DNA of 63,997 bases, the filler included, from Candidatus Woesearchaeota archaeon (GTDB lineage: Archaea; Nanobdellota; Nanobdellia; Woesearchaeales; B72-G16), in the NCBI GenBank assembly GCA_003650545.1. It is 21 parts of 21 records of this genome, joined end to end, with 100 filler letters (N's around TTAATTAATTAA, not from the genome) between each part and the next. Parts side by side here need not be neighbours in the genome. Positions count along the whole stretch, not along the records: positions 41,540 to 44,377 come from QMQO01000119.1; positions 44,478 to 47,256 come from QMQO01000120.1; 19 more parts are not named here. One strand, 5' to 3'. The notes below the pieces were generated by a model. That model had not been told where the DNA came from. It was given only the letters and a program-made list of their open reading frames with translations, and did not search any database. Shown piece after piece: positions 39,035-44,534 of the stretch; position 1 is the first letter of the stretch; every line of letters begins with the position of its first letter. A program made the position numbers and the translations under genes.

Positions 39035-39808
39035 TTATTTGCATTGGTATACACGTGTCCCAACCGGCCATCCGTATACATCACAATATCTTGGATTACT
39101 TTCGTAGGATAGCAGACATTGATTATATGGTGAACAAGATTCTCCTATTGTCGGAGACCCTGCATCACAAGATTCGCATCCGAGAGATTCACTGACCAAA
39201 TCACAACGTAAACAGATTCCTTCATCAACTAATTGCCAAGTACACTCCTGAGTATTGCATTCTCGTGTTTCTGAATAATTAACACAATCTGTTCCAACAC
39301 AGCAGGTTTTGGTTCTTGTTTGTGTGCCACCACCACAAGAAACAGAACACTCGCTCCACTCTGACCATTTTACTAAAACATCATTATCAATCGCTTCCTG
39401 CAAACTCATTGATTCTCCGTCAATTGCCACTTCAATTTCATTTGCATAATGATAGGCTTTGCTTTTATCCCTTGGCCCAGAATAAGAAGTTGTTGTAGCA
39501 TTTCCACAAAGTCCTGTTAGTGATAATGCATTAATTAAATTATTTTCAACTCCATCCACAGAAACCCAAATTCTATCTGCACTATGTTCCCCTCCTAAAA
39601 CAGAAGAAGGCAAACTATAGGCATGATTACCATTGAGCAAGTTTTCATCAATTGCTTCCTGCAGTGTTTTTTCAGAACCATCTACTAAAATTTTGATAGT
39701 ATTATCAGGATGCCATGCTTTTGCTGTATCAACAGTAGCATTTACTATAAGAAATCCTACAATTAATAGTCCAATAATGATATAAATTTGCCTCTTTTTT
39801 ATAATCAT
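39035..39808 (-). CDS. Secreted protein with three H..xxI.V..DG.E..L repeats, a TSP1 motif and a Cys-rich tail
   Basis: Signal peptide; WSEWSECSVSCGGGTQTRTKTC...ETRECNTQEC. Confidence 0.75.
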   Translation of the reverse strand: MIIKKRQIYIIIGLLIVGFLIVNATVDTAKAWHPDNTIKILVDGSEKTLQEAIDENLLNGNHAYSLPSSVLGGEHSADRIWVSVDGVENNLINALSLTGLCGNATTTSYSGPRDKSKAYHYANEIEVAIDGESMSLQEAIDNDVLVKWSEWSECSVSCGGGTQTRTKTCCVGTDCVNYSETRECNTQECTWQLVDEGICLRCDLVSESLGCESCDAGSPTIGESCSPYNQCLLSYESNPRYCDVYGWPVGTRVYQCK

Positions 39809-41539: not shown

Positions 41540-41652
41540 CAGTACTTACACCTGAGGTTACATCTTCCCGAAGCCCATGCTGTAAACTCTGTTACACGGC
41601 TTGGAACATATTGTAGTGCATAAGGCGGGAAATCAACATCAAGCCTGTACAT
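41540..41652 (-). CDS. Radical SAM enzyme, N-terminus (truncated at the contig edge)
   Basis: ...WASGRCNLRCKY followed by TG at the edge, consistent with CxxxCxxC; overlaps the upstream gene. Confidence 0.78.
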
Positions 41653-42070
41653 TTGTTTGCCTTCTTTGCCTAGGCTCAATCCTCACACCCTTGAACTCCT
41701 CATTAATGCTTGGAAGCCTTGGTTGAACTTGTAGTTGTTGCGGTCTTTGCTGTACCATAGGATACTGTTGTTGCATTGAACCTAGTATCTGTGATACAAC
41801 CTGATTAACGATCACAGGGATCGTCTGCATAAGAACATTGGTAACCGCATTAGAAATAGTAACAGCTAGATCATGTTGCCGGATCTGTGGTTGTATCTGT
41901 GGTTGCAATGGTTGTTGGATCGGTATCTGCTGCTGCACCACACCAGATTCACAACTATAGCATAATTGGCATGTTTCACAAGTTCCTTCACACCTTACAC
42001 AAGACTGGCATGAATAACAGTTCTGGCAACTATAACATATATTGCATGGGAGATTAGACATGTAGTCCAC
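41639..42070 (-). CDS. Cys-repeat (11 Cys) protein with a Gln/Pro-rich tail
   Basis: MSNLP-CNICYSCQNCYSCQSCVRCEGTCETCQLCYSCES, then QQQIPIQQP... Confidence 0.75.
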   Translation of the reverse strand: MDYMSNLPCNICYSCQNCYSCQSCVRCEGTCETCQLCYSCESGVVQQQIPIQQPLQPQIQPQIRQHDLAVTISNAVTNVLMQTIPVIVNQVVSQILGSMQQQYPMVQQRPQQLQVQPRLPSINEEFKGVRIEPRQRRQTNVQA

Positions 42071-42112
42071 CTAACACATTATATAATTTTAAATCCTTAA
42101 AAACTGTTTGTT

Positions 42113-42688
42113 TTACAGATAAAAGATCTCACATCTGACACATACTTGGCAATAATAGCATAATTGGCATACATCACAATCCTCACAGCTATAGCATGTA
42201 TAACATCCAGTGAAACAGGCTTGGCAACCATAGCATGTTTGACATGAATCACACTTCATACACGCATAGCATGTTCCTTGGCAAGTAAAGCATACTTGGC
42301 ATCCATAACAGCTATAGCAACTATAGCATGAATAGCATGATGAATAGCATCTTTGGCAAGTATTACAGCTTTGACATCCTACACAAACTTGGCATGACTC
42401 ACATGTTCCATAACACGATACACATGATTGGCAAACATTACAGCTATAGCAACTATAGCATGAATAGCATGATGTATTGCACTTTTGGCAAGTATTACAG
42501 CTTTGGCAACCAATGCATGATTGACAGCTCTCACATGTCCCGTAGCAAACGTTACAAGATTGGCATGCATTGCATACTTGGCAACCATAGCACGAGTAGC
42601 ATGAGACGTTACATCTCTGGCATGTTACACAGCTTTGGCAACTATAGCATATTTGGCAAGCATAGCATGTTCTAAGATTTATAGCCAT
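42113..42688 (-). CDS. Cys-every-third-residue repeat protein (58 Cys in 191 aa)
   Basis: GGTGATAGGTG RBS; 7-aa leader MAINLRT; 22-aa units of Cxxx plus six Cxx. Confidence 0.85.
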   Translation of the reverse strand: MAINLRTCYACQICYSCQSCVTCQRCNVSCYSCYGCQVCNACQSCNVCYGTCESCQSCIGCQSCNTCQKCNTSCYSCYSCYSCNVCQSCVSCYGTCESCQVCVGCQSCNTCQRCYSSCYSCYSCYSCYGCQVCFTCQGTCYACMKCDSCQTCYGCQACFTGCYTCYSCEDCDVCQLCYYCQVCVRCEIFYL

Positions 42689-42700
42689 ACACCTATCACC

Positions 42701-43288
42701 TCACTCATATTGGCATGTAAAGCACCTTTGACATGAATCGCATTTTTGACATCCAAAACAGCTCTGGCACGACTGGCATGAAGCTTGGCAAATATTGCAT
42801 AGCTCACATAGTTGGCATATCTGACAATAATAACAGTCATAACATGAAACATTGCACTTTTGGCATGTGTTACATGATTGGCATCCTACACAGCTTTGAC
42901 AACTTTCACATGAACCATAGCATGATACACAGGATTGGCAAGTATTACAGCTTTCACATGAATAGCACGAGTAGCATGAAGCATTACATTTTTGACACGA
43001 TACACAAGATTGGCATGTTACACAGCTTTGGCATGACTGACATGATCCGTAGCATGATACGCATTTTTGGCAAGTATTGCAGAGTTCACATGAATAGCAA
43101 CTGTAGCAGGATGAATAACAGCTCTGGCATGTATTGCACTTTTGGCATGTTACACAGCTCTGGCAGGACTGGCATGAACCGTAGCACGTGACGCATGTTT
43201 CACATGTCTCGCATACCTCGCACCTGGCGCATTCCCTGTCCCTCAGGTTAGCCGTTTTCTCAGCATATCTCCTGGTATCTATGCTCAT
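42701..43288 (-). CDS. Cys-every-third-residue repeat protein (56 Cys in 195 aa)
   Basis: ATGA overlap with the upstream gene; leader ...TANLRDRE; same 22-aa/7-Cys period. Confidence 0.85.
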   Translation of the reverse strand: MSIDTRRYAEKTANLRDRECARCEVCETCETCVTCYGSCQSCQSCVTCQKCNTCQSCYSSCYSCYSCELCNTCQKCVSCYGSCQSCQSCVTCQSCVSCQKCNASCYSCYSCESCNTCQSCVSCYGSCESCQSCVGCQSCNTCQKCNVSCYDCYYCQICQLCELCNICQASCQSCQSCFGCQKCDSCQRCFTCQYE

Positions 43289-44376
43289 CTCCTGACACCC
43301 CATACTTCAAGTAGCTTGTTGTAAGCCGTCCCGCTGTCACTATATATCTTTACGTGTATTGTATGGATCCCGTCTCCCAGATCACTTATATCTACTTCAC
43401 CAGCTACAAGCGTCTCGCTAGTGCTTGTGGTTGAAAGGGTGAGCCTCGGCGAAGCCTCGTCATTGATATAGACCTTGAGGTAAGCGGTGCCCGAAGTAGT
43501 CCATAGGCTGGCGAGAACGATCAGCCTGCTGATAGGCTCGTAGGTTGAGTGCTTGGCGAAGCGAGCATACTTCACTTCTGTTTCACTTGTTCCCGCTGAA
43601 ACCAGCGTATCATCCCAGATAATTGGAACCCTGACACCATAGACATCGCCATCAACGAACAAAGAGCCGGCAAAGTGCCCGTTCCGCCACCTAAGTGTCT
43701 CACTCCCTATGTCGAGTGCATTATCATTTGCTGGCAGTAACCTACCTTTCTGTGTGACTTCGCCTGTATGACTTACTTTCCATACCCAACTTTTTGTTAC
43801 AAGTCTTTCACCGATACCCCAATAATTTGCACCGATACCCCATACATTAGTACCAACTACAAATGTGTAACCAGCTTTACTTGATGGTGGGTTACCAAAT
43901 AATGTTACCTGCGGTATAAACGCTATGCTAGCCTCGTTACCGCTGGGATTACCTATCTGTAACTGTCCGCAACCAAAATCACTTGACTTTATCACAACTT
44001 TACTACCCACACCAGGAGTCCCGAACCCTACCGGAAGCCCAGTCTGAAGCGAACCACTTAGATATGCATTCCTCCATCTATAATTAATGCTACCTATGTC
44101 GAAGGCGTTGTCACTACCTGGTAGGAAATGCTCCCATACTTTCACATAATTATTCACTAAGGCTTGGAATACTGTCTTCCAGTCGGTGCCACCAGCTGTC
44201 TGGGTAATTGCTATCCTGACGTCTCCATTCCCAACCATAAGTTCCGCTGACTTACGCGTACTGTCTGGTATAGTGTCGGTGAAGAAGTCGTAGTTATAGA
44301 CTAACCTAGTCCAAAATACATCATTTTTCTGCACCCCACCAAGACCATCCCATATATTTATATGATTGCTTGGATG
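43285..44376 (-). CDS. Tail-fibre-like viral protein (5' truncated)
   Basis: Duplicated LP..DNA.DIGS...RWRN....G motif typical of fibre shafts; beta-rich C-terminal domain. Confidence 0.6.
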   Translation of the reverse strand, partial: HPSNHINIWDGLGGVQKNDVFWTRLVYNYDFFTDTIPDSTRKSAELMVGNGDVRIAITQTAGGTDWKTVFQALVNNYVKVWEHFLPGSDNAFDIGSINYRWRNAYLSGSLQTGLPVGFGTPGVGSKVVIKSSDFGCGQLQIGNPSGNEASIAFIPQVTLFGNPPSSKAGYTFVVGTNVWGIGANYWGIGERLVTKSWVWKVSHTGEVTQKGRLLPANDNALDIGSETLRWRNGHFAGSLFVDGDVYGVRVPIIWDDTLVSAGTSETEVKYARFAKHSTYEPISRLIVLASLWTTSGTAYLKVYINDEASPRLTLSTTSTSETLVAGEVDISDLGDGIHTIHVKIYSDSGTAYNKLLEVWGVRR

Positions 44377-44534
44377 CNNNNNNNNNNNNNNNNNNNNNNN
44401 NNNNNNNNNNNNNNNNNNNNNTTAATTAATTAANNNNNNNNNNNNNNNNNNNNNNNNNNNNNNNNNNNNNNNNNNNNGCACGGATCGACACTAGCGCTAA
44501 AAGTAATATCTTTTTTTATTTTTATCTATTTTTC

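Follow-up and report, generated by a model that had tools for sequence, protein, structure and literature searches.

The DNA analysed here (the window) is a 63,997-nt stretch from the genome bin of a Candidatus Woesearchaeota archaeon, made up of 21 short contigs (approximately 2.8–3.3 kb) joined at 20 junctions by spacers of the form N44-TTAATTAATTAA-N44. Our subject is a five-gene set that takes up exactly one of these contigs, 41540–44377 (C119, QMQO01000119.1, 2,838 bp): a fibre-like gene, three genes for cysteine-rich proteins (Cys1, Cys2 and Cys3) and the 5' end of a radical S-adenosylmethionine (SAM) enzyme gene. Artificial spacers flank the contig on both sides, so genes adjacent to it in the window are not physical neighbours, and both ends of the set are contig ends. 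An earlier note on this DNA, made from the sequence alone, had described five packed, codirectional genes; its counts and coordinates are all correct, with the genes on the minus strand:

41540..44377, separate contig C119, N spacers on each side
43285..44377, minus strand, fibre-like gene, 349 aa from a GTG at 44334, open to the contig end
42701..43288, minus strand, Cys1, 195 aa with 56 Cys (28.7%), (Cxx)6Cxxx repeats
42113..42688, minus strand, Cys2, 191 aa with 58 Cys (30.4%), paralogue of Cys1
41639..42070, minus strand, Cys3, 143 aa from a GTG, or 140 aa from an ATG at 42061
41540..41652, minus strand, 5' end of the radical SAM gene, ATG at 41652, 37 codons, ending ...WASGRCNLRCKY

The ATG of Cys1 overlaps the stop codon of the fibre-like gene as ATGA, Cys1 and Cys2 are spaced by 12 nt, and the ATG of the radical SAM gene lies inside the end of Cys3, overlapping its stop by 14 nt. 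The fibre-like frame runs for 363 codons up to the contig end, where it is still open, so this gene may be 5'-truncated. For Cys3, the ATG at 42061 behind AGGTGG is the more likely start, giving 140 aa; the protein has 11 cysteines within its first 40 residues (a CxxC block), followed by a Q/P-rich tail. The radical SAM fragment, of 37 codons from its ATG and 46 at most, ends ...GRCNLRCKY, which supplies the first two cysteines of a CX3CX2C motif, the third lying beyond the contig end. Searches of Pfam and NCBIfam yielded nothing significant for any of the five products; in PHROGs, Cys1 and Cys2 matched phrog_15341 (E 3.5e-10 and 1.5e-10, respectively).

Cys1, whose first 22 residues are free of cysteine, and Cys2 are up to 77% identical across their repeat blocks. 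The Cys-to-Cys gaps comprise 48 of three and seven of four in Cys1, and 50 of three and seven of four in Cys2, nearly always in the order 3333334, which makes a 22-residue unit with seven cysteines, (Cxx)6Cxxx. This spacing is far outside chance, and each 22-residue stutter gives a CX2CX2CX3C string. In the C119 proteins, each cysteine is followed mostly by Q, Y, E, N or V and then by S, T or V. At the DNA level the repeat measures 132 nt (44 aa, two units) and is present in 2.3–2.6 copies with 77–79% identity, which marks the repeats as old and maintained at the protein level. Contigs assembled from four public runs contain joints that skip or repeat 154–592 bases within the Cys-repeat genes (41986–43200); obtained at an 85% likeness setting that is not reliable, they may reflect variation in repeat number among relatives or mis-joins at the repeats.

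Searching IMG/VR with Cys2 revealed four true relatives, three of which (L001, L003 and L005) have a full radical SAM gene directly after the Cys genes, with the fourth (L002) ending before the enzyme position. A further candidate, L004, was rejected as an out-of-frame DNA repeat. The closest relative, L005, is the same locus as L136 and belongs to the 18-kb virus sequence G001. It has the gene order of C119: the C-domain of a fibre protein, a 68-aa Cys protein, a 65-aa Cys protein and the enzyme. Its 127-aa open reading frame (ORF) is 50% identical over 110 aa to the C119 fibre-like protein, the 68-aa protein is 48% identical to Cys1 residues 1–66 and the 65-aa protein is 53% identical to Cys2.

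IMG/VR was scanned with an alignment of the three related enzymes, all ORFs being scored with a hidden Markov model (HMM) of the three, and the best 80 of 122 relatives were analysed. Twelve contigs scored at least 260 bits, and all 12 carry same-strand Cxx-repeat ORFs directly upstream of the enzyme, at distances from an overlap up to 100 nt. Two pairs of near-copies (L144/L150 and L148/L149) reduce the 12 loci to approximately 10 distinct viruses in approximately six deep lineages. Among the other 68 loci, 60 lack a Cxx-repeat ORF, four (L153, L155, L198 and L199) have a different poly-Cys protein upstream, three (L206–L208) have a poly-Cys protein approximately 7 kb away and one (L194) has a 61-aa ORF with nine cysteines on the opposite strand. 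As a cellular control, one genome for each of 185,579 prokaryote species (GTDB) was searched with an alignment of 11 of the enzymes from the Cxx-repeat loci (the clade enzymes), and the best 80 of 582 relatives were taken. None of these 80 nearest cellular enzymes, whose top score was 224 bits, has a Cxx-repeat ORF in its 8-kb flanks. A FastTree phylogeny of 140 enzymes placed the 11 clade members on one side of a branch (one change) with SH-like support of 83, rising to 100 for the inner eight; L136, L137 and L141 form long branches at the base of the clade. The co-occurrence of radical SAM enzyme and Cxx repeats, for which the earlier note had proposed a test in IMG/VR, is found on 12 of 12 clade contigs against none of the 80 cellular ones. 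Such strict, clade-specific pairing makes an enzyme–substrate relation very likely, and we would be surprised, given the linkage across these genomes, if the Cxx-repeat proteins were not the substrates on which the clade enzyme acts. A tblastn search of 50,697 GenBank phage records gave no match for a 292-aa Cys protein or a 994-aa tail protein of the clade, and the clade enzyme found matches there only below 30% identity.

The family of the enzyme was assessed from the three full-length relatives. Their best NCBIfam model is PapB (NF047865; E 4.5e-55 to 5e-68, nearly the full model being covered and positions 6–327 of 330 in the best match), followed by the nif11, SCIFF, QhpD and CXXX-repeat maturase models. 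Compared with solved structures, the clade profile matched CteB (5wgg, E 4e-70) and then anSME (E 2e-34). A housekeeping assignment of the QueE, NrdG or MoaA kind, which the earlier note had named as an outcome that would refute it, does not apply, since the full-length relatives lie nearest to PapB and CteB. Seven cysteines (C293, C311, C354, C357, C363, C367 and C386 in L136 numbering) are invariant in 11 of 11 clade enzymes and include a CX2CX5CX3C set, which we take to be the SPASM signature; the L001 enzyme passes the SPASM model TIGR04085 (30.8 bits, cut-off 27). The cluster motif reads CX3CX2C in nine of the 11 and CX3CX3C in two, L142 (7749–9305, C-N-L-S-C-K-Y-P-C) and L156 (7839–9353, C-N-F-R-C-A-Y-P-C), where a proline is inserted before the third cysteine. 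The 37 residues from C119 align to positions 77–95 of the clade profile (19 columns; probability 88.6%, E 2.7e-6), an alignment that covers the first strand of the profile and the cluster motif. By the curated cut-offs, which none of the three full-length relatives reaches, the clade is a neighbour of the PapB, SCIFF (CteB-type) and CXXX-repeat maturase equivalogs and not a member of any.

All 11 relatives have an N-terminal extension of 59–180 residues containing one to five copies of C-x-x-C-[Y/F]-[T/S/H]-C-[E/Q]. The C119 enzyme has no fused extension, but the preceding gene, Cys3, opens with the same type of block and is 52% identical over 27 aa (E 5e-9) to the L136 enzyme at its N-terminus, so that the best reading of Cys3 is a split-off extension. 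The match to the CteB profile begins at CteB residue 96, and family searches of the relatives, in which no dedicated detector for the recognition element of RiPPs (peptides made by ribosomes and modified after translation) was used, turned up no domain N-terminal of the core. We infer that Cys3, or the fused extension, may be a docking or substrate-mimicking part that replaces the leader-recognition domain of CteB-type enzymes.

The relatives also place the module in virus tails. The Cys2 relatives and the 12 clade loci are all on viral contigs, with the module inside the tail gene block. The usual order is tape-measure gene, a 254–368-aa (Dit-sized) protein, an 819–1025-aa protein, a free Cxx-repeat protein of 105–292 aa, the enzyme and a fibre-like protein of 415–612 aa. 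In nine of the 12 loci the last 95–290 residues of the 819–1025-aa tail protein are Cxx repeats, and the Cys-repeat proteins of the relatives range overall from 65 aa to domains of 1025-aa proteins; in G005 the tail protein measures 848 aa and the Cys protein 115 aa. When Cys2 was compared by phmmer with 1.84 billion representative proteins, only 59 matched with an E-value of at most 1e-3. The top five, of 933–1021 aa, have the repeat C-terminally, and the N-terminal domain seen in the 819–1025-aa tail protein is present in 10 of the 59. That the repeat is fused to the C-terminus of a tail protein points to a product located in the distal tail. Tape-measure proteins lie upstream of the module in L150, L149 and L307, and tail-fibre families directly before it in L141 and after it in L149 (S74 endosialidase-chaperone domain). 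A Laminin_G_3 virion protein and a terminase are present in L137, and a P22-type coat protein in L141. The complete 98-kb genome G005 encodes T4-type portal, prohead protease and Gp23 capsid proteins. The Pfam scans of virus genomes covered 92 of 177 ORFs of at least 90 aa in G001, G002 and G004 and 66 of 75 ORFs of at least 150 aa in G005, the remainder being short or scanned earlier. On the 2.8 kb of C119 itself, the fibre-like gene, with weak PHROG matches, is the only tail-type gene. The central idea of the earlier note, a virus that encodes its own maturase and large poly-Cys substrates beside its fibre gene, thus gains support from comparative genomics.

The C119 fibre-like protein contains two DN-A-x-DIGS-x3-RWRN motifs (residues about 74–94 and 202–222) and a C-terminal domain of approximately 110 aa that is common to other virus fibres. 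It matches PHROGs only weakly, with phrog_36881 at E 5e-4 and the tail-fibre family phrog_7121 at E 1e-3, and a search of IMG/VR with it found no relative. The 522-aa protein P0007, encoded on a 35-kb contig, is 90% identical to it over 47% of the query, in its C-terminal part. A metagenome scan with P0007 returned C119 itself (L305), L304 and two others. P0007 looks mosaic, with its N-terminal 400 residues like the L304 fibre (83%) and its C-terminal 165 like that of C119 (90%); comparison of L304 (5463–8970), C119 (43285–44377) and P0007 indicates that the fibre genes are mosaics. L304 is a 14-kb tail block whose record has the same prefix as that of L305. It contains tail genes but neither Cys nor enzyme genes, which makes the module look like an addition to the fibre region. 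A 263-aa ORF of L304 had been considered as a TFB-like factor; this was a guess without Pfam support and was dropped. Modules of the fibre-like protein also occur in P0008, P0009 and a 548-aa ORF on contig C67 of the same bin as C119 (DIGS/RWRN-type motif, E 4.5e-7).

The earlier note had called the virus probably archaeal, and this part of its claim has only moderate support. The closest relative, G001, encodes an Hjc resolvase (E 4e-7) and the Sulf_coat_C coat C-terminal domain of Sulfolobus viruses (E 3e-22), and the complete 114-kb genome G002 carries a RadA/Rad51-type recombinase with HHH_5, PolB, an ERCC4 nuclease, C2H2 fingers and NrdD/NrdG. The fibre modules that C119 has in common with C67, P0008 and P0009 were likewise counted toward an archaeal virus. 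Other carriers are plain bacteriophages. G005, with DnaB, PolA, RecA, gp32, Amidase_3 (E 3e-43) and a lytic transglycosylase, is clearly one by its gene content; the P22 coat and the Pam3-like protein (Pam3 being a cyanophage) of G004 and the Peptidase_M15 of L149 also speak against carriers in archaeal viruses only. Archaeal-type and bacteriophage carriers together indicate that the module occurs in tailed viruses of both domains. C119 is also an outlier in its bin, which is 1.64 Mb in 133 contigs and 85% complete: its GC content is 43.4% against 36.2% for the genome, and when the 51 small contigs are ordered by how far their tetranucleotide usage departs from that of the large ones, it comes 45th; the small contigs themselves have 33–64% GC. 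Blocks of 2 kb across the window vary between 32% and 59% GC, a spread that marks the small contigs of the bin as a mixed lot. Bin membership is therefore weak evidence for the host. No spacer-like match to C119 or to four related genomes was found in the bin. A search of five virus records for the MCM family found nothing and carries no weight, the control having matched 14 of 14 control genomes, bacteria included. Overall, we lean slightly towards an archaeal host for the virus of C119.

Attempts to lengthen C119 gave short Logan contigs from four runs, and the piece at the enzyme end begins exactly at 41540. The remainder of the enzyme gene was not found in the bin, where there were only weak matches to other radical SAM genes. 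One run, listed as a sediment metagenome, holds 94% of the sampled words of C119 and may be the source sample. Pieces of the fibre and Cys3 regions, short but free of errors, also turn up in contigs of runs from two other studies (listed as marine and sediment), and no RNA run is listed as containing the stretch.

In weighing what the enzyme does to the repeats, we consider it probable that C119 comes from the block of tail genes in an uncultured tailed virus (Caudoviricetes), archaeal more likely than bacterial, in which a CteB/PapB-type enzyme staples the repeats. Cys1 and Cys2, built almost wholly of C-[Q/E/D/N/Y]-[S/T/V] triplets, would be translationally coupled to the fibre gene. Cys3 would be a small adaptor-like protein with the same motif, placed before a dedicated radical SAM/SPASM enzyme of the ranthipeptide type. 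In an infected anoxic cell, the [4Fe-4S]/SAM radical chemistry of the enzyme would join Cys sulfurs to carbons of neighbouring residues, and the many thioether bridges so made would turn the repeat into a rod or solenoid, covalently stapled and insensitive to redox conditions, that would sit at the distal tail end or form it. Thioether staples are favoured because the nearest characterized enzymes make S-to-C bridges and Q/D/E/N-type residues follow each cysteine. Across the clade, the residue after Cys is mostly Q/D/E/N, and residues of this type are the acceptors used by PapB, QhpD and NxxcB. By analogy with these enzymes, many short thioether staples along the repeat are probable. The clade repeats also have a super-period of 18–22 residues, in which runs of three are broken by gaps of four to seven, and this fits one solenoid turn; the ESM Atlas model of Cys2 resembles 22–23-residue LRR_5 solenoids (TM 0.33–0.58, weak support). 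The Cys proteins would be present in the virion, where a stapled, redox-insensitive tip would suit anoxic habitats in which disulfides are unreliable. An anoxic setting fits the NrdD/NrdG genes of the G002 carrier and the sediment run that may be the source sample. Nothing supports the heat stability that the earlier note had suggested for the appendage.

Several points weigh against this stapled-tail proposal. The ESM Atlas model of Cys1 shows no solenoid likeness, and there is no reliable fold model, an AlphaFold2 model of Cys2 from an eight-row alignment having reached a mean pLDDT of 40 and been set aside. The three full-length enzymes fall below the curated cut-offs (187–230 against 340 bits for PapB, 121–149 against 425 for TIGR03974 and 94–148 against 350 for TIGR04115), so the chemistry could differ. 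The class of the C119 enzyme, of which the contig holds 37 codons, is drawn from its relatives and a 19-column profile match. In both C119 and L136 the Cys proteins are free-standing, so their virion location is extrapolated from the fused forms, and the host of C119 is uncertain. Finally, Cxx repeats do occur apart from the clade enzyme. A generic degenerate DNA scan of IMG/VR for (Cxx)7C gave at least 127 stretches, 80 of them with flanks and mostly out-of-frame repeats, and brought out a third Cys-every-third family in viral contigs. Its proteins are 110–230 aa long, with an 'RW-DENNN-W'-type N-domain and CSDCSNC-like repeats, in up to three paralogues per contig, and they include weak phmmer matches of Cys2 (P0037, P0041, P0062 and P0065). 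The HMM of the clade enzyme has no match within 8 kb on either side of the genes of this family, which lie at:

L024, 7524–8216
L032, 7896–8363
L058, 7899–8510
L074, 3504–8201 (three paralogues)

The earlier note had seen Cys homologues without a radical SAM neighbour as telling against it; the clade repeats are always paired with their enzyme, and it is the remote Cys-every-third phage proteins that are not. Their independence keeps alive a reading in which the repeats bind metal (Zn, Fe or Fe-S) as ladders that run the length of a fibre and the enzyme does another job or merely assists. Iron-binding HxH repeats do occur at the tip of the T4 long tail fibre, and a Cys content of 29–30%, the CxxC spacing, a CX2CX2CX3C string at every 22-residue stutter and D/E/N/Q residues beside Cys that could be additional ligands would all suit such a ladder. 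The strict linkage to a SPASM maturase (12 of 12 loci against none of 80 cellular ones) and the lack of any Pfam or NCBIfam match to ferredoxin, metallothionein or zinc-finger families speak against it, and we regard it as unlikely; thioethers and metal are not mutually exclusive, however, as leftover thiols could bind metal. We view as distinctly unlikely that the same enzyme–substrate pair performs other chemistry, such as anSME-like conversion of Cys to formylglycine or formation of C–C cyclophanes on Tyr-x-Cys triplets. anSME is the second-best solved relative (E 2e-34), the cyclophane-forming SPASM families YhhB, GrrM/OscB, XyeB and FxsB are among the matches, no curated cut-off is reached, and among the residues that follow Cys in Cys2, Tyr comes second in frequency (16 of 50 positions). 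Yet the matches to PapB (5e-68) and CteB (4e-70) far exceed those to cyclophane formers (1e-16 to 1e-18), and across the clade it is Q/D/E/N, not Tyr, that is conserved after Cys.

The remaining two alternatives concern the setting. A virus-borne RiPP cluster could make released peptides (a toxin, signal or anti-competitor) in place of virion parts; known ranthipeptides are small released peptides, the L136 Cys proteins are only 65–68 aa long, and their Cys-free, leader-like N-terminal stretch is conserved with Cys1. A protease or exporter gene is found in none of the 12 loci, though, the module is always within the tail gene block, and the repeat is fused to 819–1025-aa tail proteins in nine of the 12 loci, as it is to large proteins in the five best database matches, which makes a released product very unlikely. 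That the set is an ordinary chromosomal cluster of the DPANN archaeon of the bin, in whose metagenome-assembled genome it was placed and whose contig C67 has the fibre-like ORF with the DIGS/RWRN-type motif (E 4.5e-7), is scarcely credible: Cys2 has no match in 400 other genomes of the order; GC content and tetranucleotide rank set the contig apart (43.4 against 36.2%, and 45 of 51, among small bin contigs of 33–64% GC); and all relatives are on viral contigs.

A second pairing was seen on viral contigs bearing NrdD/NrdG-like genes. There, a protein of 273–442 aa, with a globular N-domain, SSCRGACTGLCVGTC and 41–86 Cys in CSGC-type repeats, follows the tail genes and is itself followed by a 106–118-aa protein and a SPASM enzyme of another branch. 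It is independent of the first, so the combination of a poly-Cys tail protein with its own SPASM enzyme arose at least twice. In L198, a second radical SAM gene is also present, next to the gene for a third Cys-rich protein of 364 aa with 81 Cys. The loci, to which L199 also belongs, are:

L153, 6672–9263
L155, 6173–9221
L198, 1645–5362

Further radical SAM genes were noted in two of the complete carriers. G002, which has terminal repeats, has three in a row (L311, 13251–17320), two with Pfam SPASM matches, among glycosyltransferases, sugar epimerases and a UbiA prenyltransferase, with NrdD/NrdG nearby. In G005, the gene for GTP cyclohydrolase I stands in a row with those for a radical SAM protein and two QueC-like proteins (L316, 6698–12639), presumably a 7-deazaguanine DNA modification set. 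On another contig of the window, a 257-aa ORF with a signal-like N-terminus (39035–39808, minus strand) contains W-S-E-W-S-E-C-S-V-S-C-G-G-G-T-Q-T-R, which we take to resemble a thrombospondin type 1 repeat; such repeats are unusual outside eukaryotes.

The characterized systems most like the stapled-tail module are those of the ranthipeptides, CteB/CteA (SCIFF) and PapB/PapA (freyrasin). They are alike in the radical SAM and SPASM domains, where they are the best profile and structure matches, in a Cys-rich substrate gene directly upstream of the enzyme, and in acidic or amide residues near Cys as possible acceptors; for PapB, the chemistry is described in PMC12373016. Compared with CteB, the part before residue 96 is replaced by one to five CxxC[Y/F][T/S/H]C motifs, or by a separate Cys3 in C119. 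Ranthipeptide precursors are peptides of approximately 45 aa, whereas the clade substrates would be proteins of 65–292 aa or domains of approximately 1000-aa tail proteins, with 14–89 Cys each, and the clade carriers are virus genomes with the genes in tail modules.

In the quinohemoprotein amine dehydrogenase system QhpD/QhpC, a SPASM enzyme makes Cys-to-Asp/Glu thioethers in a subunit that is kept in the final complex, a single small cellular subunit with three bridges. The QhpD model (TIGR03906) is the second-best NCBIfam match of the L136 enzyme (E 1e-44), at 153 bits against a cut-off of 453; unlike QhpC, the proteins here offer dozens of potential repeat sites and have no dehydrogenase context. 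The CXXX-repeat maturase (TIGR04115), CefB, with Cys at every fifth residue (NF038107), and CcpM (TIGR04068) likewise combine a SPASM maturase with a regular poly-Cys precursor, and all are among the matches, but at 94–148 bits against cut-offs of 350–600; here the cysteines recur at every third residue, with a stutter once per 22 residues. The precursor families in Pfam and NCBIfam gave no match to Cys1, Cys2 or Cys3 (195, 191 and 143 aa). Among virion parts, the HK97 capsid is braced covalently by its isopeptide chainmail and T4 gp37 by rows of ligands in its HxH iron ladder. To our knowledge, such bracing is autocatalytic or simple metal binding, and no case involves a virus-encoded radical enzyme or Cys repeats.

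As to viruses of anoxic habitats, passages of PMC9723712, on viruses that infect methanogens and methanotrophic archaea, count the tail spikes of two viruses as some of their most Cys-rich proteins and describe one huge virus with 15 radical SAM enzymes. These passages contain no repeat pattern, link between Cys and radical SAM, or maturase hypothesis, although the figures or supplements of the paper might show family members. Neither radical SAM enzymes nor such Cys proteins are mentioned in sections of a provirus paper on the group of the bin (PMC11705971), and sections of PMC11529989 and PMC12801897 describe nothing like a poly-Cys/maturase tail module. Full-text literature searches likewise found no description of a system with this layout, in agreement with the earlier note. 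A SPASM maturase with a Cys-rich substrate is already a known kind of system; what appears to be new, from the gene arrangements and alignments, is the virus-tail setting, repeat substrates with up to 89 Cys, and a CxxC extension instead of a leader-recognition domain.

More broadly, we tentatively propose that bacterial and archaeal tailed viruses staple their own tail tip, a fused or separate (Cxx)n rod, through dozens of thioether bridges made by a private radical SAM enzyme in which the CxxC extension replaces the leader-recognition domain. The proposal goes further than our reading of C119 and could well prove wrong, but the complete enzyme–substrate pairs on the related contigs make it directly testable. 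Small released peptides and one cellular enzyme subunit are the targets known for radical SAM/SPASM maturases, and the virion protein cross-linking of which we are aware is autocatalytic only. If true, a structural protein of the virion would for the first time be seen to be matured covalently by an enzyme in RiPP style, with bridges that serve as a redox-proof stand-in for disulfides in anoxic habitats. A conserved clade of virus-specific enzymes with poly-Cys tail domains as partners would connect work on RiPP maturases with that on virions. It points to new chemistry in virus particles and to a new class of very large substrates for thioether enzymes, with 14–89 Cys each, and may offer a route to very stable repeat scaffolds.

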